Numbered from the stretch's first letter, positions 22,169-58,283 are shown. The stretch: 64,000 nt of DNA from an uncultured Ruminococcus sp. (GCA_964622425.1 CAZUQN010000003.1:1166-65165), one strand, 5' to 3'. Notes: generated from the letters alone by a model not told the origin. Made by a program: numbers and translations.

Positions 22169-22276
22169 ATTTTCACCTCCTTTCGCATATATTATATATA
22201 TTTTATAATCCGAAAAGTGTCGAAAACGTTACATCATTTTTGAAAATTTAATAAAATTTAATATGTAACAAATCTA

Positions 22277-22305
22277 TTGTTTTTATTTTTCGTGTGATGT
22301 ATAAT
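22277..22305 (+). promoter_or_regulatory. candidate promoter of the ECF sigma operon
   Basis: TTGTTT, a 17-nt spacer, then TGTATAAT (an extended -10). Confidence 0.4.
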
Positions 22306-22331
22306 ATACGCGTAAATAAGGAGGACATCCG

Positions 22332-22880: not shown

Positions 22881-23548
22881 CAACGGATAACAATATGACA
22901 TTGATTAAGGAGGCTCTATACGCTTTCGCCGCTGAAGAAAATGCACAAATTGAACGCGCTATAGAATCCGGTCCTAAGCCGCCGGAATCACTTTACTCAA
23001 GCTGCAGAGAAATTGCAGAAAAGATTGCAACAGAAAAAAAGAAGGTACTACCATTTAGGAAAGCGATAGCCGTTCTAGTAGCCGCAACTTTGATTATTTC
23101 TTTACTGACTGTAGTTGTTTATGCTGCGAGAAATAAGATAGGCGGATTTTTCATAGATTTCTTTGAGAAATATGCAGAGTTAACATCCGAAAATACAGAA
23201 GATAACAACTATACTCCCTCCGACGTTTCGATTACGTATCTGCCCGAGGATTATAACGAGACAAGAAAAAATATAGGTATAACAGGCGCACTTTATGAAT
23301 GGAAAAACAGCGAGAAAATTATAACACTACAATTCAGAATATTCTCTGACGGTTCTCAAGCTGTTGACACCGAAAATTCAGAGAATACCATAGTAGAGGT
23401 GGGTGATCTTACCGTATTCAGAACTGAAAAGTATGGGCAAATCAGCGCAACGTGGACCGATGAAAAAATGGTATATATTCTCTCCGCAACCGGCGTCGAG
23501 TGGGATGAGATGGTAAAGATCATTGAAGGAATAAAGATAGAGGAATAA
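22877..23548 (+). CDS. putative anti-sigma factor (single TM, extracytoplasmic domain)
   Basis: ATGA 4-nt overlap with the sigma gene. Central TM segment AIAVLVAATLIISLLTVVVYA. Confidence 0.6.
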   Translation: MTTDNNMTLIKEALYAFAAEENAQIERAIESGPKPPESLYSSCREIAEKIATEKKKVLPFRKAIAVLVAATLIISLLTVVVYAARNKIGGFFIDFFEKYAELTSENTEDNNYTPSDVSITYLPEDYNETRKNIGITGALYEWKNSEKIITLQFRIFSDGSQAVDTENSENTIVEVGDLTVFRTEKYGQISATWTDEKMVYILSATGVEWDEMVKIIEGIKIEE

Positions 23549-23663
23549 CAGTCGGAAAACACATCCACTTTTTATTCTTTTATGCTTGCTAATTGAAAAA
23601 CCGCCGTACCCACTGCGGTATAGCAGTTTTTTGTATATTTTATTTTACATTTCAAAACAAAAA

Positions 23664-23696
23664 GCAGAGATAATGGCTCGCGCCACATATCTCTGC
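23664..23696. terminator. hairpin between convergent genes
   Basis: GCAGAGATA...TATCTCTGC, flanked by an A-run and TTTTG. Confidence 0.5.
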
Positions 23697-23703
23697 TTTT
23701 GTT

Positions 23704-24339
23704 TTATTTAGTTCCGAAAAGGATGTCTCTGAATAGCTCGGCCGTCCTCTCGTCTCCTATTGCCTTCTTGAAGGCGTCGGTGGAAGGGCCGCCCTTTGAG
23801 AGGAGCCCTTCGACGTAAAGGCTTGCCTTTTCCTTCTTCACCTCGGGATTATCCGCAGGTCTTGCCGCATCAAGATAGGCCGCAAGATGCTCGGCCGCGA
23901 GACGGGAGAGCGCGGGTGTATCCGCCTTCTTACCCTTCTTGGATATACTCTCAGGAAGTTTTATTGAGTCATACCAATGCTCGCCTGGGTCACGCTCGGT
24001 GAGAGATGAGTATTTTGCCTTGACGTCCTCCATCGATAATCCGTCTGAGGAAAGCGTGTCATAAAGCTCAACTATGAGCGTATCGTTGCCCATAGCGAAA
24101 ATGCGGTCGTAGGAATAGAGCGGAAGGTCAACCTCGGTGGGATTAACGATAAGCGTATCCATCTTCATCAGACCGAAAAATCCCTTGGCGGTCATAACAG
24201 AAACGTGTCCAAGTCCCTCGGCGTGGTATGCGCGGATATTAAACTTCATTCCGCTTGCCTTGAGGCCCTCAACACAAGCACCGTCAATGGGTGTGATGGG
24301 ATATTTCTCCGCGATCATCAAAAGGAGTTTTTCCGTCAT
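23704..24339 (-). CDS. hypothetical protein (cytoplasmic)
   Basis: 211 aa. Its start overlaps the upstream gene's stop by 4 nt. No family is confidently recognised. Confidence 0.4.
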   Translation of the reverse strand: MTEKLLLMIAEKYPITPIDGACVEGLKASGMKFNIRAYHAEGLGHVSVMTAKGFFGLMKMDTLIVNPTEVDLPLYSYDRIFAMGNDTLIVELYDTLSSDGLSMEDVKAKYSSLTERDPGEHWYDSIKLPESISKKGKKADTPALSRLAAEHLAAYLDAARPADNPEVKKEKASLYVEGLLSKGGPSTDAFKKAIGDERTAELFRDILFGTK

Positions 24340-40445: not shown

Positions 40446-40763
40446 TTATCTTAGTTTGTCTTTACCGAGAGCGGAAAGATGAGCAAACCACTCGATATCC
40501 TCACTCTGTCTTGCAATAATTTTGTGACAGATGTAAAGATCGCGCGCTTCAGCCTCTCTCTTACCCGCCATAACGGCTGCCTCAACAGCGGCGGCAGATC
40601 CCTCGACCTTGATGGCCATAACGAGAGGAACCTTTGCCGCGTCACCTGCCGCAGGCTTGTTCTTGTCTATGGCGACGACTTTGACGTCAGCCGCCTTTGC
40701 CATTGCGTCAGCGCATACTATCGCCGTTGCAAAGCCAAAAACCTCAATCATACCGAGTGCCAT
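40446..40763 (-). CDS. BMC-domain shell protein with a C-terminal extension
   Basis: 105 aa. MALGMIEVFGFATAIVCADAMAKAADV. Confidence 0.8.
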   Translation of the reverse strand: MALGMIEVFGFATAIVCADAMAKAADVKVVAIDKNKPAAGDAAKVPLVMAIKVEGSAAAVEAAVMAGKREAEARDLYICHKIIARQSEDIEWFAHLSALGKDKLR

Positions 40764-40774
40764 ATCAACACTCC

Positions 40775-41968
40775 TTAGTCAGCAACGTAGCAAATCTTGA
40801 TACCCTGCTGAGATACGTTCATCTCCATAGCCTCGTTGAGCTTGTCAAGAGGATAGGAGTGAGTGATGAGCTCCTTGATCGGAATATTCATCTCTCTTGC
40901 CTGGCGAAGGAAGGCCATGGTGGTGGGATAATCGTCAGCGCTGTAATCCCAGGAGCCGACGATGGAGATCTCCTTGTTACACATAGCGAAGTGGGGGTTA
41001 ACCGTGTACTCGCCGTTGTTAACGAAGAAGCCCATCTCACACATTCCGCCGCCGCGACGGATATATTCATAGATATCCTTTGCCGCCATGGGAGCGCCGG
41101 TGCACTGGAAGGCGAAGTCTACGCCTACGCCGTTTGCAACGCCCTTAACGATAGCGACTCTCTCCTCAAGCGAGGTGATCTCCTTGAAGCTGATGACGGT
41201 CTTTGCGCCAAGCTTCTTTGCCATCTCGAGTCTCTTGGGAGTTCCGTCGATAGCCACGATGTGGTTAACGCCTGCGGCGCGGAGAACGGATATCATAACA
41301 AGACCTACAGGGCCAAGTCCCTGAACGAGAACCTTGGAGTTGAAGTTGATAAGACCTGTGGTGTTTGCTCTCTTGAGAGCGTGAACGCAAACGCACGCAA
41401 GCTCGAGAAGCATTCTCTCCTGAAGGTCAAGATCGTTTACTACAAAGTAGGTCGAGCCCTTGCCTCTGATAAGAAGGTGGGTAGCGAACCAGCCGGTGAG
41501 GGGCTGAGCGTCGCTGTGAGGAATAAGTCCGAAAACGCCCTGCTTGTCGCAAAGGTTGGTGTTTGCGGGATGGTTACGGCAAACGTGACACTCGCCGCAG
41601 CTGATAACCGAGGTAACGATCTTGTCGCCTACCTTGATGGGCTTGCCCGCGGTGTCGGTCTTTACGTTCTTACCGAGAGCGATGATCTCACCTGTACCCT
41701 CGTGACCGAGAGTTACGGGAATAAGACCGAAGGGGTCGCCCTTCCACTCGTGAACGTCGGTGCCGCAAACGCCGCATCCCTCAACCTTAACGAGAATATC
41801 GTCGTCTTCGAGAGCGGGGATCGGGTATTCCTTAACTTCGATTTTCTTTTGAGCGGTAAGCATAGCGACCTTAGCGGTCTTGGGAATACCTGCAGATGCA
41901 GCCTTAGGTGCGGTCTCGCCAAGAATTCTTCTTACTATTGCTTCCACCTGCGAAGAAGTAATGTTCAT
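40775..41968 (-). CDS. zinc-dependent (MDR family) alcohol dehydrogenase with an N-terminal encapsulation-peptide-like helix
   Basis: The track ORF starts at a TTG. The ATG at 41968, after GGGAAAGG, is preferred. GCGVCGTDVHEW zinc motif and N-terminus SSQVEAIVRRILGE. Confidence 0.8.
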   Translation of the reverse strand: MNITSSQVEAIVRRILGETAPKAASAGIPKTAKVAMLTAQKKIEVKEYPIPALEDDDILVKVEGCGVCGTDVHEWKGDPFGLIPVTLGHEGTGEIIALGKNVKTDTAGKPIKVGDKIVTSVISCGECHVCRNHPANTNLCDKQGVFGLIPHSDAQPLTGWFATHLLIRGKGSTYFVVNDLDLQERMLLELACVCVHALKRANTTGLINFNSKVLVQGLGPVGLVMISVLRAAGVNHIVAIDGTPKRLEMAKKLGAKTVISFKEITSLEERVAIVKGVANGVGVDFAFQCTGAPMAAKDIYEYIRRGGGMCEMGFFVNNGEYTVNPHFAMCNKEISIVGSWDYSADDYPTTMAFLRQAREMNIPIKELITHSYPLDKLNEAMEMNVSQQGIKICYVAD

Positions 41969-42050
41969 TTTATTTACCTTTCCCGACAATCATATTACGT
42001 GTAAAGCTTTTTATAGCTATTATGTAATCTTTGGTTGTCGTTTTTCTATT

Positions 42051-43511
42051 TTAGATTATTCTGAAGCTCTCCGAGAGAACACAGCGGCGATATCTGGTAA
42101 AGCTTCTCGCGCTGGTGATACCCTCGCCGGTAGGTCCTGCGATGGTGAAGGTGGTGTGTCCCTCTCCTCCGAAGCCTATGCCCGCGTAGGAGGGCGCGTT
42201 CTTTACGAATATCGTGGTCTCAACAGCTCTTGCGAATCTGGTGAGGTGGTCAATGTTCTTCGAGTGCATATGAGCGGTGTGTCTGTTGCCGTGCTCTGCC
42301 TTAACCGCGAGGTCGATAGCCTCGTCGATATTCTTTACCCTTACTATGGGAAGAATAGGCATCATGAGCTCCTCCTGGACGAAGGGGTGATTAAAGTCGG
42401 TCTCACAGATGATGCAGCGTACCTCGTCGCCTACATGAATACCGATCTTTTCGAGAATGACCTTAGCGTCACGTCCTACGCACTCACGGCTGATGACCTT
42501 GGAGATAACTCCGGTCTTGGGATTCTTCTTATCCTCAAGAACAACGTCAACAAGTCTGTCTGCGGTAGCTCTGTCGATCTTGTAAGCGCCATTTGCTATC
42601 ATCGCGTCAATGAGCTCGTCTGCAATATTTGCGAAGGCGAATACCTCCTTCTCCGCGATGCAGGGGAGGTTGTTGTCAAAGGTACATCCGTCGATGATGT
42701 CCTTGCCCGCCTTACGTATATCCGCGGTATCGTCAACGATAACGGGGGGATTTCCCGCGCCCGCGCCGATAGCCTTCTTACCCGAGGAAAGAACGCTTCT
42801 TACAACTCCGGGGCCTCCCGTACAAACGAGAAGACGGATCGCGGGATGCTTATACATAATGCTTGCCGTGTCGAGGGTAGGCTTAACGACCGATGCTACA
42901 AGCACACGGGGGCCGCCTGCCGCCAGACTCGCGCGGTTGATAAGGTCTACCGCGTAGTTAGAGGTTGCGATCGCGCCGGGGTGAGGATTGAATACAACAC
43001 CGTTGCCCGCAGCGATCATACCGATACTGTTACAGATAACCGTCTCGGAGGGGTTGGTGGAGGGCGTGATGCTTCCCACAACTCCGAAGGGAGCCATCTC
43101 GGTGAGTGTAAGACCATAGTCGCCGGTCTTTGCCGTGGATACGATATCCGCAGTGCCGGGTGTCTTGTCCGCCACGAGAGTGTGCTTTGCGATCTTGTGC
43201 GCTACCCTGCCCATCTTGGTCTCGGCAACGCCGATCTCCGCCATAATGGGAGCTTCCTTTCTCGTAAGGTCGCGGATGACCGCAATGATCTTCTCACGCT
43301 CCTCGAGTGACATTGCTCTGATAGCCTTGTAGCCCTGAGTAGCCGCATCGATAGCATCGTTCATATCGGAATAAACGCCGACGAACTTTCTGCCCTCGTA
43401 GCCGGTCGCATCCCAAGTCTTTGCGGATGCGCTCACGGGATTTGCGTTAAGATTCTTAAGCACCGAGGCAACGACCTTTTCTATGTCGGCCTCTGTCCAA
43501 TTTATAGCCAC
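42051..43511 (-). CDS. pduP: CoA-acylating aldehyde dehydrogenase (PduP/EutE-like)
   Basis: 486 aa, GTG start after GGAG. Catalytic NNLPCIAEKE motif and an N-terminal amphipathic helix EADIEKVVASVLKNL. Confidence 0.85.
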   Translation of the reverse strand: MAINWTEADIEKVVASVLKNLNANPVSASAKTWDATGYEGRKFVGVYSDMNDAIDAATQGYKAIRAMSLEEREKIIAVIRDLTRKEAPIMAEIGVAETKMGRVAHKIAKHTLVADKTPGTADIVSTAKTGDYGLTLTEMAPFGVVGSITPSTNPSETVICNSIGMIAAGNGVVFNPHPGAIATSNYAVDLINRASLAAGGPRVLVASVVKPTLDTASIMYKHPAIRLLVCTGGPGVVRSVLSSGKKAIGAGAGNPPVIVDDTADIRKAGKDIIDGCTFDNNLPCIAEKEVFAFANIADELIDAMIANGAYKIDRATADRLVDVVLEDKKNPKTGVISKVISRECVGRDAKVILEKIGIHVGDEVRCIICETDFNHPFVQEELMMPILPIVRVKNIDEAIDLAVKAEHGNRHTAHMHSKNIDHLTRFARAVETTIFVKNAPSYAGIGFGGEGHTTFTIAGPTGEGITSARSFTRYRRCVLSESFRII

Positions 43512-43556
43512 TTTAGTTTTTCTCCTTTCTAAAGCTTTTCCTTATTTCAAAGAGAA

Positions 43557-44300
43557 TTACTTACCAAGAGCCTCAAGAACCTTGCGGGTGATGGTAGCAA
43601 CGAGCTCCTCGTTTGCGGGAGCGGGCTCCTCATCGTACTCGATGCCGGGGTGACGGCCGGGAAGGTTCATCTTCTTACGGAGATCCATGAGCTTAACAAG
43701 CTGATCGTTGGGGATCTCGTGAACTGCGCCGAGCTCCATAGCGTACTTACAGATCTTTGCGTTGAACTCAACCTCCTCCATAACAAAGCGAGCCTTGTTA
43801 AGGTTGCAGCCTACGGTAAGAGCACCGTGGTTCTGAAGAAGGAATGCGTCGTGATTCTGGATGTAAGGAAGAAGGGAGTCGGGAATCTCCATGGTGGAGG
43901 GAGTACCGTACTCACAGGTAGGAACGCTACCAATGGTAAGAACTGCCTCAGGGAGAATGTACTGGTCAAGGTCGATGCCTGCGATGGTGAAGGCGGTAGC
44001 TACGGGAGGATGAGCGTGAACAACTGCGTTTACGTCAGGTCTCTCCTGATACACTCTCATGTGCATCTTGATCTCGGAGGAGGGATTGAGTCTGCCCTCG
44101 AGCTTGTTACCGTTCTTGTCTACCTTGATGATCATGTCGGGAGTGAGGTCTCTCTTGGACACGCCTGTGGGAGTGCAGTAGAACTCATTCTCGCCAACCT
44201 TAACGGAAATGTTACCGTCGTTTGCTGCTACGAAGCCAAGCTCGTACATAATGTGACCGACTTCGCAGATTTCTTTCTTGATCTCATAAACAGATTTCAT
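43557..44300 (-). CDS. class II aldolase (fuculose/rhamnulose-1-phosphate aldolase-like) with a C-terminal encapsulation-peptide-like tail
   Basis: 247 aa. AVVHAHPP metal motif and a C-terminal extension EELVATITRKVLEALGK. Confidence 0.85.
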   Translation of the reverse strand: MKSVYEIKKEICEVGHIMYELGFVAANDGNISVKVGENEFYCTPTGVSKRDLTPDMIIKVDKNGNKLEGRLNPSSEIKMHMRVYQERPDVNAVVHAHPPVATAFTIAGIDLDQYILPEAVLTIGSVPTCEYGTPSTMEIPDSLLPYIQNHDAFLLQNHGALTVGCNLNKARFVMEEVEFNAKICKYAMELGAVHEIPNDQLVKLMDLRKKMNLPGRHPGIEYDEEPAPANEELVATITRKVLEALGK

Positions 44301-44350
44301 TTTTTCTTTTTCCTTTCGGTATATATAAATTACTTAGTTAACTGACTTGA

Positions 44351-45541
44351 TTACTTAGTTGCGAGCGCGAGGGTGTCAAGAGCGATCATATATTCCTCGT
44401 TGGTGGGAATAACGAAGGTTCTTACGCTTGCGCCGGGAGCGGTGATCTCGAGGATCTCGCCGCGAGGACCGTTCATATTGAGCTCCTCGTCGATCTTAAT
44501 GCCAAGATAGGACATATCGCGGCATACGTTCTGGCGCAGAGTCTTGTTGTTCTCGCCGATACCTGCGGTGAATACGAGCGCGTCAACGCCGTTCATCTCA
44601 GCAACGTAGGAGCCAATGATCTTCTTGATATTGTGGGTGAGGATCTCGTTTGTAAGAGCCGCTCTTCTGTTTCCTGCCTCAGCAGCCGCGTCGATATCTC
44701 TGCAGTCGCTGGATACGCCGGAAACGCCGAGAAGACCGGACTTGGAGTTAAGGAGCTTCTCAACCTCAGCAGGGGTGAGTCCTTCCTTCTTCATAATATA
44801 AGGAACAACGGTGGGGTCGATAGCGCCGCATCTGGTACCCATGGGCACGCCGTCGTTGGGAGTGAAGCCCATGGAGGTGTCAACTGCCTTGCCGTTTACG
44901 GTAGCGGTGATAGAGGAGCCGTTACCAAGGTGGCAGGTGATGATCTTCGCGTCCTTGTTGCCGATAAGCTTACACGCCTCAGCACATACGAATCTGTGAG
45001 AGGTGCCGTGGAAGCCGTAGCGGCGGATCTTATGCTTTTCGTAAAGCTCGTAAGGAAGGGGGTAAATGAATGCCTTCTCTTCCATAGAGGAATAGTAAGA
45101 GGTGTCGAATACACCAACGTGTACAACGTCGGGCATAACTGCCTTACAGCCCTTGAATCCGCTGATTGCAGGCGGACCGTGGAGGGGGTTGATCTCAACG
45201 ATGCTCTCAAGATATGCGAGCTTCTCGTCGTCGAGAATAGAGGACTGACGGATCTCTCCGCCGTGAGCAAATCTGTGGCCTACCGCGCCGATCTCGTCAG
45301 CACTTGCTACAACGCCGAGCTCAGGGTCGGTGAGAAGTGAGAGCACGAGCTCGATCGCAGCCTTGTGATCCTTAAGCTCGGTTTCACGGGAGTAGTCTTC
45401 CTTGCCGGGACGCTTGTGAGTGATCTTGCCGTCAATGCCGATTCTCTCGCAAAGGCCCTTAGCAAGCACCTCGCCCGTCTCCATATCAAAGAGCTGATAC
45501 TTAAGGGAGGACGAGCCTGCGTTTACAACTAAAATTTTCAT
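44351..45541 (-). CDS. ackA: acetate/propionate kinase
   Basis: 396 aa. MKILVVNAGSSSLKYQLF start. Confidence 0.9.
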   Translation of the reverse strand: MKILVVNAGSSSLKYQLFDMETGEVLAKGLCERIGIDGKITHKRPGKEDYSRETELKDHKAAIELVLSLLTDPELGVVASADEIGAVGHRFAHGGEIRQSSILDDEKLAYLESIVEINPLHGPPAISGFKGCKAVMPDVVHVGVFDTSYYSSMEEKAFIYPLPYELYEKHKIRRYGFHGTSHRFVCAEACKLIGNKDAKIITCHLGNGSSITATVNGKAVDTSMGFTPNDGVPMGTRCGAIDPTVVPYIMKKEGLTPAEVEKLLNSKSGLLGVSGVSSDCRDIDAAAEAGNRRAALTNEILTHNIKKIIGSYVAEMNGVDALVFTAGIGENNKTLRQNVCRDMSYLGIKIDEELNMNGPRGEILEITAPGASVRTFVIPTNEEYMIALDTLALATK

Positions 45542-45600
45542 TTTCGTTTCTCCTTGTGATATATATTAATTATTTTTTGTTTTCGCTGATGGTTATTTAG

Positions 45601-45740
45601 GTTGAGTTATGAGAGTGCTATCGCGCTCAACGTTATGGTATGATTGCCCATCAAACCTTAAACTTGGCGCCAGCCAATCATAACTACCCGAAGGGTATTT
45701 TAACTCATAACTTGCCCCACAGGGCAATCATAACTGCGAA
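45601..45740. repeat. mini-hairpin array with word TCATAAC (family copy 2 of 3)
   Basis: ttggcGCCAgccaa TCATAAC tacccGAAgggta ttttaac TCATAAC ttgcccCACAgggcaa TCATAAC. The left half carries GTTATGA. Shares the core tatgattgccc with the other two copies. Confidence 0.7.
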
Positions 45741-45743
45741 GCG

Positions 45744-46583
45744 TCAATCTACGATACGCTTCGCTTTTAGCTCCGCCTCCTCCTGCACTACCGCCTGCGC
45801 TCTCTCCGCATTCTCGTAAACGATCTTGTAGCAGAGTGCGTCGATAACGACGAGTCTCGCGAGGTGGGAATTCAGACCGAGGGTTGAGTGCCTCGTCTCC
45901 TCGGTATCGGTCAGGAGCACGATCTCCGACAGCCTTGCTATCGGTGACTTCTCGCGCGAGGTGATAGCTATCGTCCGCGCTCCGCGCGACCTCGCCACCT
46001 TCATCGACTCAACGATGTCCTTTGACGCGCCCGACTGCGATATGCCGATGACCGTGTCACCCGGCCTCAGCTGGGAGACCGCGATAGCCTGCATATGCGT
46101 ATCTGCATACGCCACAGAGTTACAACCTGCCCTGAGTAGCTTGTTGCTCGCCTCCGCCGCAACCTGCGCAGATGCGCCAAGTCCGATGAGCACTACCCTG
46201 CCCGCGCCCGCAATCGCCTTCACCGCGGCAGTCATAGCCTCGGGCGAGAGTGTCTTCTTCGTCCTCTCGAGCGACATGTAAGCGTCGTTGCAGACCTTCT
46301 CGAATATGCTGAAGCAGTCGTCCGACGCCGTGATGGTCGGAGCGATAACCTTCTTGTCGTGCTCTCTCGCCAGAGCGATCTTCAGATCCTGGTATCCCGA
46401 GCATCCGAGTCTCTTGGAGAATCGGACTATCGTTGCCTCGCTGCTCTCACACATGGAGGCAAGGTCTGTTATGGAATACGGAAGGATCTCTCCCGAGTGG
46501 GAGAATAACCAATCAGCGACTCTCTTCTCGGACTTGCCCATGTCATTGTACAAGAGCTGCGCCTGAAGTAGGGTCCTGTTCAA
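45744..46583 (-). CDS. MurR/RpiR family transcriptional regulator (HTH + SIS domain)
   Basis: 279 aa, TTG start 7 nt after AGGAGG. N-terminal HTH (SEKRVADWLF, TDLASMCESSEATIVRF) and a SIS domain. Confidence 0.85.
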   Translation of the reverse strand: MNRTLLQAQLLYNDMGKSEKRVADWLFSHSGEILPYSITDLASMCESSEATIVRFSKRLGCSGYQDLKIALAREHDKKVIAPTITASDDCFSIFEKVCNDAYMSLERTKKTLSPEAMTAAVKAIAGAGRVVLIGLGASAQVAAEASNKLLRAGCNSVAYADTHMQAIAVSQLRPGDTVIGISQSGASKDIVESMKVARSRGARTIAITSREKSPIARLSEIVLLTDTEETRHSTLGLNSHLARLVVIDALCYKIVYENAERAQAVVQEEAELKAKRIVD

Positions 46584-46617
46584 AATCTTGCCTCCTTTCG
46601 TGTTTTTTTGGCGTTTT

Positions 46618-47031: not shown

Positions 47032-47862
47032 ATGCCGAAATGGGCAAAAAAGGCGCTTGACGTGACCTCAACGGTAGCACTGATAATTTTCATAGTTTTC
47101 GTAATACTGCTCCTTGGAGTCAGAGTGTTCGGCATAGAGCCGCACATAGTGCTCTCCGGCTCGATGGAGCCCGAAATACTGACCGGCTCGATGGTCTACG
47201 TTGACAAGCTCACCCCCGAGGAGGCCGCAAGCCTTCAACCCGGCGACACCGTCACCTACCAAGTCGACCAAAGAGGCACCAAGGTAACGCATAAGATATA
47301 TAACGTGGTCGGTAAAATACCGATCTACGATACCGATGAAAACGGCAATCAGAAGCTCGACGAAAGCGGCAACCCCATCATAAAGGAGTACGCCAAGGAT
47401 GCCGAGGGCAACGAGATAGTGATGTATACCACATACGGCGTGAACAACGTCAAGGACGGTAATATTGAGCTCGCGCTCGACGGTGATCCTGAGATCGGCA
47501 ACCTCGCCTCGTCAAACGTTATCGGCAAGGCTAAGTTCTCTATTCCCTTCCTCGGCTACATCGCGCACTTCGTGCAGAACCCGCCCGGCAAGTATCTCGT
47601 GCTCATCGGCTGCGTGATGCTGATATTTATGACCTTCTTTGCAAACGGACCGGCAGACAATGCGGCGGAGCCGCAGCCTGTAGGGACCGGCGTCCTCGAC
47701 GGTCCGTCCGAAATGCAAAATGCAGAATGCAAAATGCAAAATGAGGAGAGCGAGAGTACGCAAGAGATGAAACCCGTAGGGGACGGCGGTCTTGACGGTC
47801 CGTCTGAACCTCAAAGCGAAAGCGAAGATGCGCCCTCCGAAACCGCAGAAAATGACAACTAA
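47032..47862 (+). CDS. sipW: SipW-type (ER/archaeal-type) signal peptidase I with an unusual ~70-aa C-terminal tail
   Basis: 276 aa. N-terminal TM segment, catalytic SGSMEP motif and a second TM near residue 190. The tail is encoded by repeat-like DNA. Confidence 0.85.
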   Translation: MPKWAKKALDVTSTVALIIFIVFVILLLGVRVFGIEPHIVLSGSMEPEILTGSMVYVDKLTPEEAASLQPGDTVTYQVDQRGTKVTHKIYNVVGKIPIYDTDENGNQKLDESGNPIIKEYAKDAEGNEIVMYTTYGVNNVKDGNIELALDGDPEIGNLASSNVIGKAKFSIPFLGYIAHFVQNPPGKYLVLIGCVMLIFMTFFANGPADNAAEPQPVGTGVLDGPSEMQNAECKMQNEESESTQEMKPVGDGGLDGPSEPQSESEDAPSETAENDN

Positions 47863-48759: not shown

Positions 48760-49998
48760 TCACTCTTTTTCGGTTACGCCTAAATTGAGCAGCCCATTTT
48801 CAATCGCCTCAATGCGATCGCCAAGCGGCGGATGGCTATACTCAAGCGCAACGTTGATGCGCGAGGGCGAAAGGTGCGCAAAGTTCTCCCTCGCGAGCTT
48901 CTTGAGCGCCGAGACCATCGCCTCGCCGTAGCCCTCCTTAACCGCCTGCTCGTCTGCGCGGTATTCTGCCTTGCGGCTGCGCGCGTTGATCACAAGCGAG
49001 GTAAGGGGCTGGATAAGTCCGAGACCTGCCGAAAGGAGTATGTAAGCAAAGCCGTAGTTGACCTCGCCAAAGCCGAATGCCGTGTGTAATGCTGGCGCGC
49101 TGACCGCACCCCATACGATAAGCGACATTATAAGCAGGTTGCCGAAATTAAGTATCTGATTCTTGAGCACGTCGCGATGCAGACCGTGGCCGAGCTCGTG
49201 CGCAAACACCGAGCATATCTCGTCTGCGGTCATCGCGTTCACAAGATTGTCGTAGAGGACTATCGTCTTGAGCTTGCCAAAGCCGGTGAAGTAGGCGTTG
49301 AGCTTGGTCGTTCTGCGTGAGGCGTCCATAACCTCAATAGCCTTTACCGTGTACCCGTGCTTAGTTAAGAGCTCCATAAGTCTGTCCTTGAGCTCGCCGT
49401 CCTCGAGGGGCGTGAACTTGTTGCCTACTCTGCTGAGTATGGGATAGAGGAAGGAAATCACGAGCGTCACAAGGAAGATCGCTACAGCAAAGAGGAGGAT
49501 CATCCAGTTACCGAGCCACACGTGCACCGCGCGCAGGAGCACCACGATACCGATCGAAATGCCGAGCTCAATGATAAATCCGCGGATCTTGTCGATAACA
49601 AAGGTCTTCATAGTCGAGCGGTTAAAGCCGTACTTTTCCTCGATCTTCATCGTGCCGATATAGCTGAAGATGACCGACACGACCGTGCCGACCGCGCTCT
49701 CAAGGAGTATGACCGAAAACAGCTGCATAAACCAGCTATCACCAAACAGCCCAGCAAATGCCGAGTAGACGTTGGTCGCGAGCATCAGCACACTCACCGC
49801 ACAGCCGACGAGTCCCGAGATTATCGAGAGCCTCGAGTGCTCCGCGCTGTACTTCTTCCATCTGTCATAGGTTTCCGCGTCGTAAACGTCCGCAAGGTTC
49901 TCGGGCGTCGGATTGCTTGCCGAGCGATACTGCACCAGATTCAGCACAAGCTGATAAAGCCCGGAAATGATTACCGCAATAATTACAAGTAGCTTCAT
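48760..49998 (-). CDS. M48 family (Ste24/HtpX-like) zinc metalloprotease
   Basis: 412 aa, polytopic. HELGH motif (FAHELGHGLH). Confidence 0.85.
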   Translation of the reverse strand: MKLLVIIAVIISGLYQLVLNLVQYRSASNPTPENLADVYDAETYDRWKKYSAEHSRLSIISGLVGCAVSVLMLATNVYSAFAGLFGDSWFMQLFSVILLESAVGTVVSVIFSYIGTMKIEEKYGFNRSTMKTFVIDKIRGFIIELGISIGIVVLLRAVHVWLGNWMILLFAVAIFLVTLVISFLYPILSRVGNKFTPLEDGELKDRLMELLTKHGYTVKAIEVMDASRRTTKLNAYFTGFGKLKTIVLYDNLVNAMTADEICSVFAHELGHGLHRDVLKNQILNFGNLLIMSLIVWGAVSAPALHTAFGFGEVNYGFAYILLSAGLGLIQPLTSLVINARSRKAEYRADEQAVKEGYGEAMVSALKKLARENFAHLSPSRINVALEYSHPPLGDRIEAIENGLLNLGVTEKE

Positions 49999-50683: not shown

Positions 50684-50992
50684 ATGTCAGTACTTCACAT
50701 TGGAAAAGCAGAATTTGATGAGAAGATAAGAAACAGCGAGAAGCCCGTCCTTGTGGACTTCTACGCAACCTGGTGCGGCCCGTGTAAGATGATCGCGCCC
50801 ATCCTAGAGGAGATCGCCGAGGAGCACCCCGAGTACGTTATCGCTAAGGTAAACGTTGACGACGAGCCCGAGCTCGCAAAGGAGTTTAAGATCATGTCCA
50901 TCCCCGCCCTCTTTGTCCTGAGAGACGGCGAGATCACCGATAAGGCCGTCGGCTACCGCGATAAGGACGCTCTGCTAGATCTTCTAAGCTAA
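50684..50992 (+). CDS. trxA: thioredoxin
   Basis: 102 aa. WCGPCK active site. Confidence 0.9.
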   Translation: MSVLHIGKAEFDEKIRNSEKPVLVDFYATWCGPCKMIAPILEEIAEEHPEYVIAKVNVDDEPELAKEFKIMSIPALFVLRDGEITDKAVGYRDKDALLDLLS

Positions 50993-51692: not shown

Positions 51693-51723
51693 GAAAAAAG
51701 AGCCTCGCATTTCTGCGAGGCTC
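51693..51723 (-). terminator. rho-independent terminator of the giant gene (duplicated at 51352-51381)
   Basis: On the minus strand: GAGCCTCGCagaaatGCGAGGCTC followed by TTTTTT. Confidence 0.7.
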
Positions 51724-51758: not shown

Positions 51759-54700
51759 TTACGGGGTTACCATTCCCACTTCGTTATCCGTGAGCCACTG
51801 GTCGGTCGCGATTGTCAAGTCATCCTTTTTAATCGTGATTGAACCGCCAACGCTAACCTCAACATCTACTGTTGTAATAACAGAATCAAGATTACCATAT
51901 CTCCAAGACCACTTCTTGTCGAACGTAACAGTATACTGACCTATTGCAACGTCAGTAACAGTAAGAGCTACGCCGTCAACAACCGCAACGGTGAAGGTCT
52001 TGCCTTCTGCGAAGGTACCTGCAACACCGGTAAAGGTAAGGATAAAGCTGTCACTCTGTCCGCTTGTAATCTTAATTTCGAGATCAGCCGAGCGAGGAAG
52101 GAAGAGTGCGTAGTAGGTTGCGGAAATGTAGAGATTACCTTCCTGCTCATCACCATTATCATCCTCATAAGTGAACTGGGTCTTGGTGGGAATCAAGTGG
52201 CTATACTCTCCAATGGTCACTGGGTCAACATTAGTATCAATAGGAGTCGTGCACTCTGCATCCTTGAACCAACCGGCAAAATAATATGTCTCAGACTCAT
52301 AAGGAATAGAGCCCACAGGTGTATCATCAGAACCGGAATTAATGTTTTCACGCGTCATTGACAAACCAACGTCGCTTCCATCAATATCGTCACAAACGAT
52401 CTCGTAGATAAATGTCGACTCAGATTTCTGATAGTAGAAAATAATCACGTTACGAGATTCGTCAATATAGAGTGTAAGCGATCTCTGTGTAGACTGATCT
52501 ACAAGGTCACAACCCTTGTTGTTAACGATCTCCATATGCTTCTGCTTGTCAAGATCAACGGTGACAAGGTGTCCATGCTGAACTCCAGACGCGTCTGCTG
52601 CAACCTCATAAGAGTAATATTCCTCACCGCTATCAACATCCACGTACTTAACAGTATATCCAACAGTAACGCGATCATAGTACAGATTTATCTCTAAACC
52701 GTATTCAGTAATCGTATAACCGAATTTTTCTTCATCCATGTTGATGTGCTCAAGATCGCCCTGTGGAATAACTACACTCTCAACTACACCCGAAGTCTCA
52801 TCTTGCCTACGTGTCTCAGCATCTGCCTTTGAGAAACTGTATCCGGTAATGTCAGTCAAAACAGTTCCAAACACTATGTTTCCATCGCCGCCCTGAATAA
52901 TCTCAAAGGTGCCCGACTGATAAGAATAAACCGAATATGTTCCATCGACGTTCTGTATCAAATGATTTACAACCCAAGGAGCTGTTATGGGTGCATCAGC
53001 TTCGTTCTTGGTGTAATAGAAGGTAATAACGTTATTTGTCGCTTGATCGGTAGATGAAAGAATCAAGGACTTTGAATAAGCGTCAACTGTATAACCCGTA
53101 ATAGGTACAAATAGCTCAGTGACCGCGGCTTTTCTCGTTTTGCCCTCATAGGTTGCGGGATAGTTTGGATCGGTAGAGTCAAATACTTCTCGTGTTTCGT
53201 TATCAACGTATTTTACCCAATAACTTACCTCTTCAACCTCGTCATAAACGAAGTTGTACTCATTAACAAGAATGTTTCCATCTCCATCCTTTTCAAACTT
53301 CATCTGAACAGTATGGCTTCCTACCTGAGGGAAATAGCCCTCTTGGTAATCAGCATAAAGATCAGCTCCTGCCAAAGCACGGAAGGTTTTGTTCTGACCG
53401 GCAAGCGCGCTTCCCAGCATGGAATTACCGATCTGCACGTATACTGGCTCGTCATTTTCATCAACAACCAGCTGACCGTTCTCATCCTTTTGTTGAGTTA
53501 CAAAATTAATCTTGTAGTTAACCGTCTGCTCGGAAATCCACTTAGCATAGATAACCATATCCTGAGTGATTGGGAAGTTGAAGAGAAATGCTTTTTCTTC
53601 ATTTGTTTCGGGATCTACGTAGAACCAACCATTGAAAGTATAGTTAAGGTCCTTCTTGTATGCAGACTGCGTATAATCAGGCTCTACAGCATAGTATCTA
53701 TGTCCAACATACTGATCACCGTAGTTATCCTCACTAAACTGTGTGGTAAATGTAGCATCATCATACACTTTGACATGTCTAGTGACAGGGGTCCAAATAG
53801 CATAAAGGTTAAGCTCGCCGTCAGGAAGCGTGTCCGTCTCCCAGTCTACCATTGTATACTCACTTTGATACTCAGTAGTGTACCAACCTGCAAAAACGTA
53901 TGCTCCGACCTCAAGCTGACTAGGATATGGTACATTATTAATGTCAAAGTTACCATATGTTTCACTACTTTTCAGCACGGCAGCGAAGTCGCCCAATGAA
54001 GCACCGTATTTTAGAGGATTAGACTCCCCTGCTTGGGGTATGGTAATCAGGCTATTTCCGGCATTGAATATGTTAACCTTGAGATTTGAACTGTTTCTGT
54101 CGTAGAAGTACACATATCGGGTTACATTCTCAACGTCCAACACATTTATGCCTTCTGTTTTTTCAGGGTTAGTCTCTGTTCCTGTGACGGTATGAATATT
54201 CATACCGTGGATACTCTTTATTCCTTCTTTTTCTAGCTGAGCAAGAGCATCAATTACTCCGTCTCCATCGGAATCCGTGGCATCTAATGCGATAAATTGC
54301 ATATGTGTAGAATCTGCATCGTACCACTTTCCATCGAATTCCTTTCTTCCGTTTCCGTTTTCATCGTAAGGAATTTCGCCACTTTCTATATCAAAGCTCT
54401 CAAACATATAGTAGAGAATATATGGAACAATATTGCTCGAATACTGAGCGACCGTCCTGATTCCTGCAGAATAGCAAAGTTCAGTAACCATCGTTATGTG
54501 TTTAACGTAACGATCTATCGCTTTACTTGTATCCGTACCAGTACTATCATATTTCCAATATGTAAAATATGCTCCTTCATCATTTTGTTGAAGCCCAAGC
54601 GTATTTAGCTCAATGAAATACGGAACATATGCAGTAATATCCTGACCATATTTGGCCTGAAGTATTCTTATTGTTTGATAATAATCTTCCGGCTTAGCTT

Positions 54701-57700
54701 CAGCTTTTTGTTCGTCAGATAGGTTGTTATATACTTCCGAATAAGTAGTATCATTGGTATGCTGATGTTCTGGCTTCATACAGAGATAGCCATAACAATC
54801 TATGGTGTGTTCATGGGTGCATAAGCAATAATCTGTATGCTCGTGCTCCGCTTTTCCGCAACCATAGCAACCTTCGGCATCTGTATGCGTGTGCTCATAA
54901 CCAACAGTACAGACTTCACTGTTACATCCACCGGTGTGGTCGTGGTCAGGGGCATTTTCAGGACAAGTATCTGCCTCAATAATGACTGGGTTGGTTGAAT
55001 AATCCACATCAGGATCATAAGCATCATAATAGTACCATTGACCATTGATATAGATGGTGGGAACATCCATATATATGGTACCTGATATAATTCCCGTGCG
55101 GCTACTATACGGCACTGCTAAATCGTTCAATACATATACATATCCATTTTGAAGATTTTGAGGCGGAGCTTCCTTTTGAACAGCCGTAGCAGCTTCCGCG
55201 GCCTTTTCAGATGCAGTATCGTTAACAATGGTATTAAGTATGCCCGAAATAAGATCTCCTCCCCAAGAGAAGTTCTTCTTAATGTCAGCCTCAACTAAAG
55301 GGGAAGCGGCAGAACCAATTGAAGTTGCCATATCTGAATCAACGGAATAACAACCTGCATCGTGCACGTGCACGCCACAACATTCTGGTCCATGTATGTG
55401 CTCAGTTTTACTACAATTCTTGCATCCTGCAACATGTGTGTGTTCTTCAATGGAGCAAGAGCCCGAAGTATTGCAAGCGGAGGTATGCACGTGTTTACAA
55501 TAGAAGGGGTTGTACTCACAAGTACCGTCACCATGAAAATGTTCGTCAAGTTTGCAACCCGACTTAAGCGTATCCGCAACAAAAGTGATCTGATAGTAAC
55601 GACGATTAAAGAACACGTTAACCGTGGAGGAACCATCACCCTTAATAACAACGCCATCAGGAGAATCCTTAACCATTTCCTCATACGTCAACGATGTATT
55701 AAGCGTTGTATACTGATAATCCTCATCCCCGGTTACTACATCATCAATTGGAACTGGATTATCCCCATCATACTTTATGTACGTTCCTGATGTAGCGGTC
55801 TTCGGTACTGTATGCCAGATACTGTAGTTACCGTCATTGGGGTTTTCGAGCCAGTAAACCATATTATAATTTACTATCTCTTCACTCCAATTTGCCTTGT
55901 AAGTAACATTACAAATTATCTTGACTTTGTTTTCTTTACCTGCTGTTAAGTATTCATATCCGGCAGCGGGATCATCACAATCGACTACCTCCCACCCAAC
56001 AAATCCGTAACCTGCACAAATTGCATCGTTAATACCGACCTCATATCCATACGGAACATAAAGGTTCTCCTGTCCATATGCACCGTCTTCAACCATATCG
56101 AAGAGAACGGTGTAATACTCTCTATCGTAACGAACTTCAATGACTGTGCTACCGTCCGCAGCGATCTCAGTAGGTTCATAATAGAGGTGGCGGAAACCGG
56201 TAATATCAATCTCACAACCACTAACAGGGGAATCAACCGTACCGGACCCTTCGGTAACCGGTTGAGCCTCATATGCTACATAATTGTCATCATATACGTT
56301 CTTAATAAAGTGGTATATTTTGTATTTAGCCTTACCGGGATAATAATAAACGTTTACCGTATAGTCTGCGGTATATCCGGCGTCAATTGAAACAGTCGTA
56401 AGAGAATCATCCGAATCCGGATTCTGTGAAAAATCATAAGGATTAGAGGGTTCCGTCATGCTCGGGTAATATCCGAGAACAGAAGGAATATTAACCGTAT
56501 ACGCCTCATAATCGGTCTTTAAGGTACGGATATCGGGATAAGTTGCTTGAACCTGTGTTCCGTCAGGGCGTACCTTAATGAAGTTGACGGTTAGAGTGAT
56601 ACGCTCGGTAGACGTATCTCCATCCGCATAAGCCTTTGCGCTGTGTACAATGTATTCCTCGTTAGCAGTGGTAATATTCTCGTACTCAGGCTCCATGGGT
56701 TTAGGAGCGTAAACCGTCTTAATAGTGATGGGCAGAGATCTGTACTCAGTCTCACCATCATATGCCACTGCGCGAATCTTTGTCTTGTTATTTTCATCAA
56801 GGACATTCTTTACGAGAGCATAGGTGACGTAACATACATCGGTCACCTTGTCGTATATTCTAGCCCAAGTGTTATTTTCTGCATCAACAAGGATTTCCCA
56901 TCCCCATTCAACGTCACCGGTAAGTCTCTCCGTCTTTGCAGCTTCAAGAAGCATTTTACCGTCTTCATAAAGCGTGATTATGTCAGTTTCCTGTCCACGA
57001 TAGGTTATGGAAACAGGAGAAACGTACTCCTCGGTGATAATGAGATCGTAATAAGGATCGATGTATCTATACTGATCGTATATCATCGGCCAATCCACAT
57101 TGGTCGCATATACGTAAGTATCATCTTTATGAATTCGCTTAACGATTACTTCCTCGGGGAAGTTCTTAGTAGATACCTCGGGCTCAACGTCCTCATCTCC
57201 GTAGCCATACTCCTCGAATATAGCACTTTCTGAAGGCTCAGCAGGTCTATACGGTGCTAAACCTGTTTCTGTTTCACCAAGATTCCAGACTGCAGTGTAT
57301 TCCTTGCCAAGCTCCATTTCATCGACTGATAATCCTCCGTCTATCAGGAGCTTATCTGCATCAATATACCTATAGTCATCATAGCCTGCAGGCCAATCGA
57401 GGTTAGTTGTGTAAACAAGGTTGAAATCTCTTACACTGTTACGGATAACCGTTACACTCTCAGGAAGAAGTTCTTCGTTAATGACCTCTCCAAGTGCATC
57501 ATACGTATTAATAAAATTAAATCTCGCATAAGGCCAGAAGGTATCCGATACCCACTTCGCCGAATAGAGCTTACCGACCTCCATATCGGAGACGGAGAGT
57601 CCGGTTTCCTCATCGGTGCTATCGAGCGCTATCGCGGGGACCACGCCGATAGGCAATATATAGAACACTGTCACAAGCGCCAGAAGGAGCGAAAGTATTC

Positions 57701-57710
57701 TTTTTTTCAT
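51759..57710 (-). CDS. giant secreted multi-domain surface/adhesin-like protein (no recognisable anchor)
   Basis: 1983 aa, SD AGGAGG, Sec signal MKKRILSLLLALVTVFYILPIGVVPAIA. Two ~100-aa N-terminal repeats. F.GW-type Listeria-Bacteroides repeats (YVFAGWYT, YTFNGWFYVDPETNEE, YYFAGWFKD). MucBP-like Y.VKYVD modules. Two Cys/HxH-rich blocks. No LPXTG and no C-terminal TM seen. Confidence 0.8.
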   Translation of the reverse strand: MKKRILSLLLALVTVFYILPIGVVPAIALDSTDEETGLSVSDMEVGKLYSAKWVSDTFWPYARFNFINTYDALGEVINEELLPESVTVIRNSVRDFNLVYTTNLDWPAGYDDYRYIDADKLLIDGGLSVDEMELGKEYTAVWNLGETETGLAPYRPAEPSESAIFEEYGYGDEDVEPEVSTKNFPEEVIVKRIHKDDTYVYATNVDWPMIYDQYRYIDPYYDLIITEEYVSPVSITYRGQETDIITLYEDGKMLLEAAKTERLTGDVEWGWEILVDAENNTWARIYDKVTDVCYVTYALVKNVLDENNKTKIRAVAYDGETEYRSLPITIKTVYAPKPMEPEYENITTANEEYIVHSAKAYADGDTSTERITLTVNFIKVRPDGTQVQATYPDIRTLKTDYEAYTVNIPSVLGYYPSMTEPSNPYDFSQNPDSDDSLTTVSIDAGYTADYTVNVYYYPGKAKYKIYHFIKNVYDDNYVAYEAQPVTEGSGTVDSPVSGCEIDITGFRHLYYEPTEIAADGSTVIEVRYDREYYTVLFDMVEDGAYGQENLYVPYGYEVGINDAICAGYGFVGWEVVDCDDPAAGYEYLTAGKENKVKIICNVTYKANWSEEIVNYNMVYWLENPNDGNYSIWHTVPKTATSGTYIKYDGDNPVPIDDVVTGDEDYQYTTLNTSLTYEEMVKDSPDGVVIKGDGSSTVNVFFNRRYYQITFVADTLKSGCKLDEHFHGDGTCEYNPFYCKHVHTSACNTSGSCSIEEHTHVAGCKNCSKTEHIHGPECCGVHVHDAGCYSVDSDMATSIGSAASPLVEADIKKNFSWGGDLISGILNTIVNDTASEKAAEAATAVQKEAPPQNLQNGYVYVLNDLAVPYSSRTGIISGTIYMDVPTIYINGQWYYYDAYDPDVDYSTNPVIIEADTCPENAPDHDHTGGCNSEVCTVGYEHTHTDAEGCYGCGKAEHEHTDYCLCTHEHTIDCYGYLCMKPEHQHTNDTTYSEVYNNLSDEQKAEAKPEDYYQTIRILQAKYGQDITAYVPYFIELNTLGLQQNDEGAYFTYWKYDSTGTDTSKAIDRYVKHITMVTELCYSAGIRTVAQYSSNIVPYILYYMFESFDIESGEIPYDENGNGRKEFDGKWYDADSTHMQFIALDATDSDGDGVIDALAQLEKEGIKSIHGMNIHTVTGTETNPEKTEGINVLDVENVTRYVYFYDRNSSNLKVNIFNAGNSLITIPQAGESNPLKYGASLGDFAAVLKSSETYGNFDINNVPYPSQLEVGAYVFAGWYTTEYQSEYTMVDWETDTLPDGELNLYAIWTPVTRHVKVYDDATFTTQFSEDNYGDQYVGHRYYAVEPDYTQSAYKKDLNYTFNGWFYVDPETNEEKAFLFNFPITQDMVIYAKWISEQTVNYKINFVTQQKDENGQLVVDENDEPVYVQIGNSMLGSALAGQNKTFRALAGADLYADYQEGYFPQVGSHTVQMKFEKDGDGNILVNEYNFVYDEVEEVSYWVKYVDNETREVFDSTDPNYPATYEGKTRKAAVTELFVPITGYTVDAYSKSLILSSTDQATNNVITFYYTKNEADAPITAPWVVNHLIQNVDGTYSVYSYQSGTFEIIQGGDGNIVFGTVLTDITGYSFSKADAETRRQDETSGVVESVVIPQGDLEHINMDEEKFGYTITEYGLEINLYYDRVTVGYTVKYVDVDSGEEYYSYEVAADASGVQHGHLVTVDLDKQKHMEIVNNKGCDLVDQSTQRSLTLYIDESRNVIIFYYQKSESTFIYEIVCDDIDGSDVGLSMTRENINSGSDDTPVGSIPYESETYYFAGWFKDAECTTPIDTNVDPVTIGEYSHLIPTKTQFTYEDDNGDEQEGNLYISATYYALFLPRSADLEIKITSGQSDSFILTFTGVAGTFAEGKTFTVAVVDGVALTVTDVAIGQYTVTFDKKWSWRYGNLDSVITTVDVEVSVGGSITIKKDDLTIATDQWLTDNEVGMVTP

Positions 57711-57722
57711 TTTTCGTCCTCC

Positions 57723-58283
57723 TTAGGGTGTGATGTTAAGTGTTTTATCGTCGTTGACACTTGCAACGGATGTCCAGCTATTCACAACCGCCCCGGCGGG
57801 CTCTGCCTGAATCGCGGAAGAAAGCACCTGAACGGTGAGTGTGTAGCCTTCCATAGTGGTGTTTGCGGTTACTCCATTTGCAGCAATAAGAGTTACGCTG
57901 TCATCCTTGGATATAGGCTTCTTATAGTACCAGAAGCCGTCACTTCCCTTCGCCCAGTTTGCATCGGTGCTATAAGTGATGGTGTAATCCGCATCTTCGC
58001 CCTCCACAGGCATAGTCGAGAGGATAACACCGTTTGTATCCACCCAAGTAACGACCACTGCAGCGCGGACGTAAACGTCGGTGTCCTCTATGTTTGTGAT
58101 TGTGGAGCCGCTGATAGAGATATCCACCTCACCGGGGGTGAAGGTGTTATTAAGCTCGTTTGTCTTAACGATTATATACGCCAGCGTTGAGCCTACGATG
58201 GCTACGCTGAGCACGACGGTCAGGACTAAAAACGCCACTGCCTTTTTGCCCGACCATATGAAAAACTTAAATGTTTTTGGCAT
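57723..58283 (-). CDS. TasA/CalY-like protein with a SipW-type signal (paralog 6)
   Basis: 186 aa. Signal-anchor followed by STLAYIIVKTNELNNTFTPGEVDISI. Confidence 0.65.
   Translation of the reverse strand: MPKTFKFFIWSGKKAVAFLVLTVVLSVAIVGSTLAYIIVKTNELNNTFTPGEVDISISGSTITNIEDTDVYVRAAVVVTWVDTNGVILSTMPVEGEDADYTITYSTDANWAKGSDGFWYYKKPISKDDSVTLIAANGVTANTTMEGYTLTVQVLSSAIQAEPAGAVVNSWTSVASVNDDKTLNITP

Follow-up and report, generated by a model that had tools for sequence, protein, structure and literature searches.

A giant protein without an anchor of its own as a candidate tip subunit of TasA/BsaA-like fibres in gut Clostridia

How could a bacterium hold on to a very large secreted protein that carries no anchor? 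The question is raised by a stretch of 64,000 nucleotides from an uncultured Ruminococcus sp. (GCA_964622425.1 CAZUQN010000003.1:1166-65165; the whole stretch is called the window here), in which a gene for a protein of 1983 amino acids (aa), termed the giant in the following, closes a cluster of genes for TasA-like proteins. Fibres of the TasA/BsaA type are known to serve as scaffolds in biofilms and consist of one or two small subunits. We propose here that such donor-strand fibres can include a dedicated giant tip subunit together with an adaptor, which would be new. Our literature searches yielded no account of the giant family or its terminal domain with tail, nor of any TasA-type fibre in which a donor strand is C-terminal. 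Our reading, to which we give slightly better than an even chance, is that the giant is the tip or passenger subunit of a SipW-dependent, heteropolymeric TasA/BsaA-like fibre and that its C-terminal tail is docked in the adjacent TasA-like subunit, paralog 6. The strongest evidence is a co-variation between the tail and this subunit, which points to a contact between the two.

The giant, its tail and the adjacent TasA-like subunit

The features that matter for this reading are the following:

51759..57710, minus strand: giant gene, 1983 aa plus stop codon, ATG start
51762..51809, minus strand: free C-terminal tail of the giant, residues 1968-1983, ATDQWLTDNEVGMVTP; proposed docking or donor strand
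51810..52112, minus strand: CnaB/pilin-like beta-sandwich domain, residues ~1867-1967, with a WSWRY motif; hallmark of the family; predicted local distance difference test (pLDDT) >90
57627..57710, minus strand: classical Sec signal peptide, residues 1-28, ...PAIA|LD, read from sequence
57723..58283, minus strand: TasA-like paralog 6, "E-type" subunit and proposed acceptor of the tail, Peptidase_M73 match

Paralog 6 and its orthologs (best BLAST matches), together termed E-type, always abut the giant gene. The E-type gene lies directly downstream of the giant in 64 loci, as in L010 of the main clade with the giant ORF at 4065-8687 and its partner at 8699-9325, and directly upstream in the clade of the window (WIN, L001, L002, L004, L015, L024 and L037), so that the adjacency survives a flip of the gene order. 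In an alignment of 71 E-type proteins we found a segment of the form V.C.V.E.F.G..K..V.I.N.G, whose Glu and Lys are invariant in 59 loci. The Lys is missing in the other 12, mostly through a deletion of 4-9 residues. The tail of the giant, for its part, reads W-L-x7-N-x-F in about 56 of 74 giants, for example EKWLDGDSYKVNIF. As scored, 58 loci have both the Lys in the E-type protein and the Asn in the tail, 12 have neither, one has the Lys without the Asn and none the Asn without the Lys. In L069, the one locus out of line, the pattern missed the Asn of the tail YLLDGSAYARNNSV, and the corrected count with both residues is 59. The 12 loci with neither residue fall into at least four lineages of a rough neighbour-joining tree, made from a part of the giant outside the terminal domain. 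One of them, L018, has a pair of substitutions and no deletion (N to H in the tail, K to I in the partner). In the same 12 loci the fibre subunits keep the Asn in 45 of 49 of their own donor strands, and thus the loss is specific to the pair of giant tail and E-type subunit and not system-wide.

BsaA of C. perfringens polymerises by N-terminal donor-strand exchange and forms an isopeptide bond between N35 and K74 that is catalysed by E56 (PMC11580942). The co-variation suggests that in most lineages the contact between tail and E-type subunit is likewise an Asn-Lys isopeptide. In the window the E-type segment reads EVDISI---------SGSTITNIE, with a 9-residue deletion of the Glu/Lys segment. This lineage has lost the tail Asn, the Lys segment of the partner and also the sortase-anchored base subunit described below; with Asn and Lys gone, attachment of the giant would be non-covalent there. 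The window copy is a derived member of the family without the putative covalent lock.

The association of the giant with TasA-like genes holds throughout the family. Open reading frames (ORFs) were called in the window and in all 87 fetched loci, and hidden Markov models were built from window and locus sequences. We found 51 relatives of the giant in the protein database and 210 in reference genomes, scanned with one genome per species; the latter belong to Oscillospiraceae, Lachnospiraceae, Acutalibacteraceae, Christensenellaceae, Anaerovoracaceae, Erysipelotrichaceae and other Clostridia-type metagenome-assembled genomes. Cultured carriers among the matches include Roseburia intestinalis (L025) and Clostridium sp. 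SGI.024 (L083). On the strand of the giant, TasA-like ORFs are present in all 74 distinct cases in which the giant has the C-terminal domain; on the opposite strand there are none. Where at least 3 kb of upstream sequence was available, at least one upstream TasA-like ORF was present in 59 of 59 cases and at least two in 58, and of 43 loci that reached at least 8 kb upstream, 40 have a SipW-like gene. The linkage extends to L006 and L007, where the surrounding genes are wholly different. The original prediction had the giant displayed by, or attached through, the TasA-like proteins and had named conservation of the gene pair across genomes as one way to check it. The linkage in 74 of 74 distinct members supports this, and from the comparative evidence we infer the attachment itself.

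Judged by profile matches, the six genes upstream of the giant belong to the TasA/camelysin-like, SipW-dependent family. They match Peptidase_M73 with E values of 1e-5 to 3e-3, four of them reaching or exceeding the Pfam cut-off and the rest falling just short of it, and there are matches to the BsaA family as well. The SipW-type signal model TIGR04088 is above its cut-off for four of the six (paralogs 1, 2, 4 and 5). Predicted donor strands in the set of paralogs 4 to 1 are YFTDTAKFTNTF, WLTAETDPITNTF, YLTSQQTITNTF and WFTDTAKSGNNVI, and the predicted mature N-termini of the window paralogs, for example YFTDTAKFTNTF, WLTAETDPITNTF and YIIVKTNELNNTF, contain the hxNxF motif. The giant itself is built differently. 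The TasA-like jelly-roll (Pfam PF12389, Peptidase_M73) gave no match on the whole giant or on 10 segments of it, and TIGR04088 from NCBIfam gave none either. Its N-terminus, MKKRILSLLLALVTVFYILPIGVVPAIA|LD, is the classical n-h-c Sec signal that had been predicted from the sequence; it reads AIA|LD and has no A|(Y/W)(F/L)TD motif. The mature N-terminus is LDSTDEETGLSV and has no hxNxF donor strand. The one donor-like segment of the giant is C-terminal, and in the window it is without NxF.

The giant has no wall or membrane anchor of its own. We found in it no C-terminal LPXTG-type signal, transmembrane (TM) segment, YSIRK, SLH-like or choline-binding motif, and its LPXTG-like matches are internal only (VPKTA at residue 635, VPITG at residue 1535). 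That no anchor is recognisable had been claimed before, and our search for a cryptic sortase, SLH or other anchor motif was negative as well. No ORF of the window has a sorting signal, no convincing sortase (no credible ORF with a TLxTC motif) is encoded in it, and no sortase is among the called genes within 10 kb on each side in the syntenic loci L001-L005. A sortase is present at the distant locus L006.

What the giant does have is a compact terminal domain and a tail behind it. The AlphaFold2 model of residues 1795-1983, based on an alignment of 29 sequences, reached a mean pLDDT of 89.7. It has an InlB-B-type module and then a beta-sandwich up to about residue 1967, and residues 1975-1983 of the tail are coil with a pLDDT <50. 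Foldseek against the PDB matched the domain to BcpA, Spy0128/T-antigens, CnaB2 and TIE (probability 0.96-1.0, E 2e-3 to 2e-2), and its sequence profile matched T-antigen pilins (E 1.9e-6). Hence the domain is pilin/CnaB-like and not TasA-like. The window copy lacks the E-box Glu and the Asn of the last strand (TVTFD, ITIKK) and has no intramolecular isopeptide triad. The family shares the ending ...G.Y.(V/I)T....WSWRY...(30-60 aa)...(K/Q/Y)WL..., and where distant homologs have a stalk built of DUF7601/DUF5979 repeats, only their terminal domain contains WSWR and WL. In most relatives the last strand of the domain itself, VTFxN(T/K)R, precedes the WL tail, which is thus an extra piece behind a whole domain. 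Because of this complete strand in the relatives, and because the tail is disordered in AlphaFold2, we rejected the idea that the tail is simply the last strand of the domain.

No Pfam or NCBIfam model describes the terminal domain. The window copy has no Pfam match to DUF7601/DUF5979 at E up to 1; the distant homolog P0046 has a DUF7601 match at this domain. A profile of the terminal domain returned 3694 cluster representatives at E ≤ 1e-3 and 1994 at E ≤ 1e-10. Among 143 newly returned top matches, 118 contain WSWR and about 95 the WL tail, on proteins of 125-2600 aa. P0046 (2285 aa) has BNR/sialidase-like N-terminal domains on the same terminal domain, with the tail WLDGDSYKVNIF. The module thus rides on varied passengers, and P0046 suggests that enzymes as well as adhesins can be carried.

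At the other end of the proposed fibre, comparison of the loci yielded a candidate for the base. In 52 loci the gene after the E-type gene encodes an "F-type" protein that combines a Sec signal with a sorting signal of the sortase type at its C-terminus, the latter consisting of (P/A/L)P(Q/K/P)TGD or LIQTGQ, a TM segment and an RRRK-type tail (L010 9332-9997, L061 14815-15480 and L079 15158-15826 are examples). It is plausible, from this arrangement, that the F-type protein is a wall-anchored base subunit, and this reading agrees with earlier speculation on LPXTG-bearing BsaB homologs (PMC11580942). We found no F-type gene in the window clade. Relatives of the window have two TM-anchored TasA-like genes ahead of SipW (L001 2340-2924 and 2965-3504), at a position that falls beyond the edge of the window.

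Docking of the tail and its alternatives

On our reading the giant is exported via Sec by its own classical signal peptide, as its sequence indicates. Its last ~115 residues are predicted with high confidence to comprise the CnaB/pilin-like domain and, behind it, 12-16 residues of flexible tail. This tail would dock onto paralog 6, most likely by filling its groove as a donor beta-strand. Once docked it would cap the end of the fibre and start its growth, with the giant at the distal tip, in analogy to TapA. Further growth of the fibre would proceed from the membrane, with SipW freeing the N-terminal donor strand of each subunit. In most relatives an Asn-Lys isopeptide like N35-K74 of BsaA would lock the joint, and in the window lineage docking would be non-covalent.

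A tail that acts as a donor strand may be expected to look like one, and taken alone this resemblance is suggestive. The spacing between the aromatic residue and the Asn of the tail (W-to-N = 9) is shared with 131 of 270 predicted TasA-like donor strands. When tails are scored as donor strands their median percentile is 0.3%, compared with about 2% expected, only a moderate gain over chance. In a donor profile of the first six residues WLTDNE of the window is the best match in the whole protein. The window-clade hexamers WLTDNE, WLTDDA and WLSDDT are at or near the top, with 9.4-11.3 bits, a level reached by ≤0.06% of body windows; for one protein taken by itself, the hexamer result amounts to p ~0.02. 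We also considered transpeptidation by SipW at the ...Q|WLTD site of the giant. This was discarded, since D, E, Q, K or Y precedes the W and signal peptidase needs small residues.

Several observations weigh against the docking model, and three of them favour the alternative that the giant is a free, co-expressed matrix protein or secreted adhesin, released or loosely trapped and without a defined joint. First, a position-specific scoring matrix (PSSM) made from donor strands only (12-15 residues) places its highest-scoring window in the tail of only 9 of the 74 giants; internal strands of the MucBP-like type LVLSAD..ENVITFYY outscore the tail. The matrix is thus unspecific for the tail, the sequence mimicry rests on few positions, and we do not claim mimicry over the full length of a donor strand. 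Second, the window tail is without N-x-F and its partner without the Glu/Lys segment. Third, BsaC, the large protein of the sipW-bsaA-bsaB-bsaC operon of C. perfringens, was found as a secreted monomer (PMC11580942), and the giant might be BsaC-like. Two further points concern the lock. Fisher's test on the table of E-type Lys and tail Asn gives p ~1e-12, a value that is uncorrected for phylogeny. The spacing of Glu and Lys in E-type proteins differs from that of E56 and K74 in BsaA, and we therefore do not claim homology with the BsaA triad. However, a free adhesin would leave unexplained why the E-type gene stays adjacent across the flip of the gene order, why Asn and Lys co-vary in this pair specifically, and why a free tail is conserved on ~2000 cluster representatives. 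We consider the free adhesin unlikely.

The E-type protein might instead be a dedicated chaperone or escort that binds the tail transiently for export, folding or hand-over and is not itself a subunit of the fibre. TapA and CapP have been described to act on TasA and CalY in a chaperone-like manner by strand complementation (PMC10151520, PMC13082335), and adjacency and co-variation are equally expected of a chaperone and its client. Yet the E-type protein has a SipW-type signal and a full N-x-F donor strand of its own, as for a polymerising subunit, and the invariant Glu/Lys pair suggests a bond that is permanent and not transient. A pure escort role therefore seems rather improbable to us. 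We rate slightly lower still that N-terminal repeats or Cys/His blocks attach the giant to the cell envelope or a substrate, the tail being vestigial in the window lineage: the aromatic-rich, confidently folded repeats are indeed restricted to the clade that lacks the tail Asn and the sortase-anchored F-type subunit, but no known family of wall-binding domains matches them, members of the clade have anywhere from 0 to 2 copies, and the start of the tail (WLTD/YFITD) is still kept there and resembles the starts of donor strands.

Passenger modules, operon and neighbouring genes

Between signal peptide and terminal domain the giant carries the following modules:

57360..57602, minus strand: N-terminal repeat 1, residues 37-117; internal similarity, pLDDT ~90
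57057..57335, minus strand: N-terminal repeat 2, residues 126-218; internal similarity, AlphaFold2 model
55350..55556, minus strand: Cys/HxH block 1, residues 719-787; five HxH motifs, 10 Cys
54765..54965, minus strand: Cys/HxH block 2, residues 916-982; five HxH motifs, 9 Cys
53781..53900, minus strand: Listeria-Bacteroides (InlB B-type) repeat, residues 1271-1310; TIGR02543 22.1 bits, Flg_new
52224..52298, minus strand: Listeria-Bacteroides repeat, residues 1805-1829; Pfam Flg_new 30 bits

This architecture, partly shown by models and profile matches, is that of a long modular adhesin made of a string of beta-sandwich domains and InlB B-repeats. Residues 1-50 are the most conserved stretch of the family and residues ~223-710 and ~1200-1983 are common to it; the central Cys/His region and the N-terminal repeats are variable. 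The two N-terminal repeats of about 100 aa in the original prediction are 36% identical to each other (E 2e-11) and are modelled by AlphaFold2 with a pLDDT of ~90. They match no Pfam family, and their pattern DMEVGKLY...DWP..Y..YRY occurs only in the clade without the tail Asn. The model of residues 30-470 (mean pLDDT 82) contains both repeats and more beta-sandwich domains, with a disordered linker at ~339-367. Foldseek with this model returned generic Ig/FnIII arrays only, so no binding specificity can be proposed.

The Cys/HxH blocks were likewise recovered, with 44% identity between them, and they may bind metal. The two 70-residue blocks, rich in [ED]HxH and Cys, stand on either side of a poorly conserved insert. 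The region as a whole (residues 719-982, 54765-55556), block 2 included, is the least conserved part of the family, yet the C..HxH...C pattern is kept in the consensus. Both Listeria-Bacteroides repeats, also predicted earlier, are above the curated cut-offs (27 bits for Flg_new, PF09479; 20.95 bits for TIGR02543). The family profile adds a weak match to an InlB B-repeat in the PDB at residues ~530-600 (E 0.02), and the homologs P0021 and P0045 are publicly named "InlB B-repeat-containing protein". The MucBP-like modules of the original prediction were not confirmed: of 17 homologous segments 2 have a match to MucBP_2 (best E 1.3e-3), and no MucBP match was obtained on the window protein. Flg_new alone matched when Pfam was run on 10 segments of the giant. 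A phmmer search of the PDB with the whole giant gave no match, a profile search of the PDB gave none for residues 1395-1600, and no von Willebrand A domain was matched on the giant in Pfam or NCBIfam.

The remaining features of the operon and a related gene close by are listed here:

51700..51723, minus strand: intrinsic terminator ending the operon; 10-bp stem with 7 GC pairs, 4-nt loop, T-run
57711..57722, minus strand: spacer of 12 nt; its first five bases with the last A of the upstream TAA form the Shine-Dalgarno sequence AGGAGG
58299..59081, minus strand: TasA-like paralog 5; BsaA-family match, cytoplasmic N-terminal extension of 70 aa and TM segment
60188-60937, 60954-61544, 61567-62223 and 62301-63011 (within 60188..63011), minus strand: TasA-like paralogs 4 to 1
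63909..64000, minus strand: 3' end of the operon SipW signal peptidase, cut by the window edge; last 29 codons, matching the C-terminus of the L001 SipW
47032..47862, plus strand: second SipW-like signal peptidase, 276 aa; SipW E 2.8e-21, TIGR02228 74 bits (cut-off 51.85)

The operon on the minus strand runs from the SipW 3' end through a DUF559 gene, paralogs 1-4, a second DUF559 gene and paralogs 5 and 6 to the giant and the terminator. What the original prediction said about this end of the cluster proved right. The ORF of 1983 aa is the last gene, it starts 12 nt past the stop of paralog 6 (186 aa; TAA at 57723-57725, then GGAGGACGAAAA, then the ATG of the giant) with a Shine-Dalgarno sequence of its own, and a clean terminator follows at 51723-51700. 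Beyond it lie a thioredoxin gene, an M48 peptidase and the second SipW-like peptidase. This flanking gene order is kept in L001-L005, although the giants there are only 27-42% identical.

Some further observations concern individual genes of this region. The extension of paralog 5, REIERLERELGAMNAKAAEDAARADAQ..., precedes the TM segment and the SipW-type site; in other lineages such an extension is found on the E-type subunit. The second SipW-like copy is unusually long and lies ~4 kb downstream on the opposite strand, a position conserved in syntenic loci. Small genes of the DUF559 family (Vsr-like endonuclease fold) occupy gaps in the TasA-like array, in the window at 59212-59595 and 63276-63653, both on the minus strand, and in three copies in L001 (4508-4834, 8083-8460 and 18809-19096). 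They give the impression that a selfish or mobile gene has inserted several times into the fibre operon. The thioredoxin gene (50684-50992, plus strand) and the M48/HtpX-like peptidase gene (48760-49998, minus strand) adjoin the operon in all close relatives, and in some of them an extra small gene with a weak match to ferredoxin-thioredoxin reductase (PF02943) is found beside them. A connection of the genes on the thioredoxin side with the Cys-rich giant is possible.

Farther away, the window encodes an RpiR regulator, acetate kinase, class II aldolase, aldehyde dehydrogenase and alcohol dehydrogenase at 40700-46600. In relatives, shell genes of a bacterial microcompartment follow this set (L002 24089-24442), and the region looks like a microcompartment locus next to the fibre operon. 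The GC content is 0.38-0.40 at ~20000-24000 of the window, compared with ~0.50 in the rest.

Meaning and comparison with known systems

With relatives in 210 reference genomes and ~2000-3700 protein clusters, the family offers a concrete candidate for a joint between a giant adhesin and one identifiable subunit, and the residues proposed for it are open to mutation. Judging by it, many gut Clostridia that are still uncultured may present large, rapidly evolving adhesins on fibres that do not depend on sortase. The pair of tail and partner could be a natural peptide/protein ligation module, similar to SpyTag. In a more tentative generalisation, which we regard as somewhat less probable than not, these operons would encode a third kind of Gram-positive pilus in gut Clostridia. 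It would be assembled tip-first, with the tail of the giant in a TasA-like adaptor, mostly locked by an isopeptide, and with a SipW-gated shaft. Its base would be sortase-anchored or, in the window lineage, membrane-anchored, and the CnaB-like plug would be portable and found on thousands of passengers.

Features of such a fibre can be recognised in several known systems. BsaA/TasA genes are often neighbours of LPxTG, SpaA-domain and sortase genes (PMC11580942). As in sortase pili (BcpA, Spy0128, SpaC), the C-terminal domain of the giant has a CnaB/pilin Ig fold, and the operons of most relatives include a base subunit with an LPXTG-like signal. Unlike these pilins, the giant has neither sorting signal nor pilin motif and no sortase or sorting-signal protein was found in the window; insertion of a strand would replace transpeptidation. 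Gram-negative tip adhesins (FimH of type 1 pili; Mfa5 and FimC-E of type V pili) also place a large adhesin on the end of a fibre via an adaptor, and type V pili likewise use C-terminal donor strands. However, there is no sequence relation to the Gram-negative donor-strand pili and no usher, chaperone or outer membrane. FimH, moreover, is an acceptor, its pilin domain having an open groove, whereas the giant would be the donor.

The bsa operon of C. perfringens is likewise a clostridial operon of the SipW/TasA-like kind in which several paralogs are followed by a last gene for a large additional protein, and the window paralogs share the hxNxF donor motif with BsaA. The differences lie in the last gene and in the number of subunits. 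BsaC, compared by its description, is a 70-kDa protein with a vWA domain, for which the giant gave no match, and the window has six paralogs, a passenger of 1983 aa and a specific adaptor subunit. TasA itself uses an N-terminal donor strand, and the N-terminus of TapA resembles such a strand and was proposed to donate the first one (PMC9674648). The TapA-SipW-TasA operon of B. subtilis offers an operon-encoded accessory protein with a donor-strand-like segment, TapA being proposed as nucleator and cap (PMC9674648, PMC10151520). TapA, however, is small, is processed by SipW and carries its donor-like segment at the N-terminus, whereas in the giant the tail is C-terminal, the signal peptide is an ordinary one and passenger domains take up ~1850 residues.

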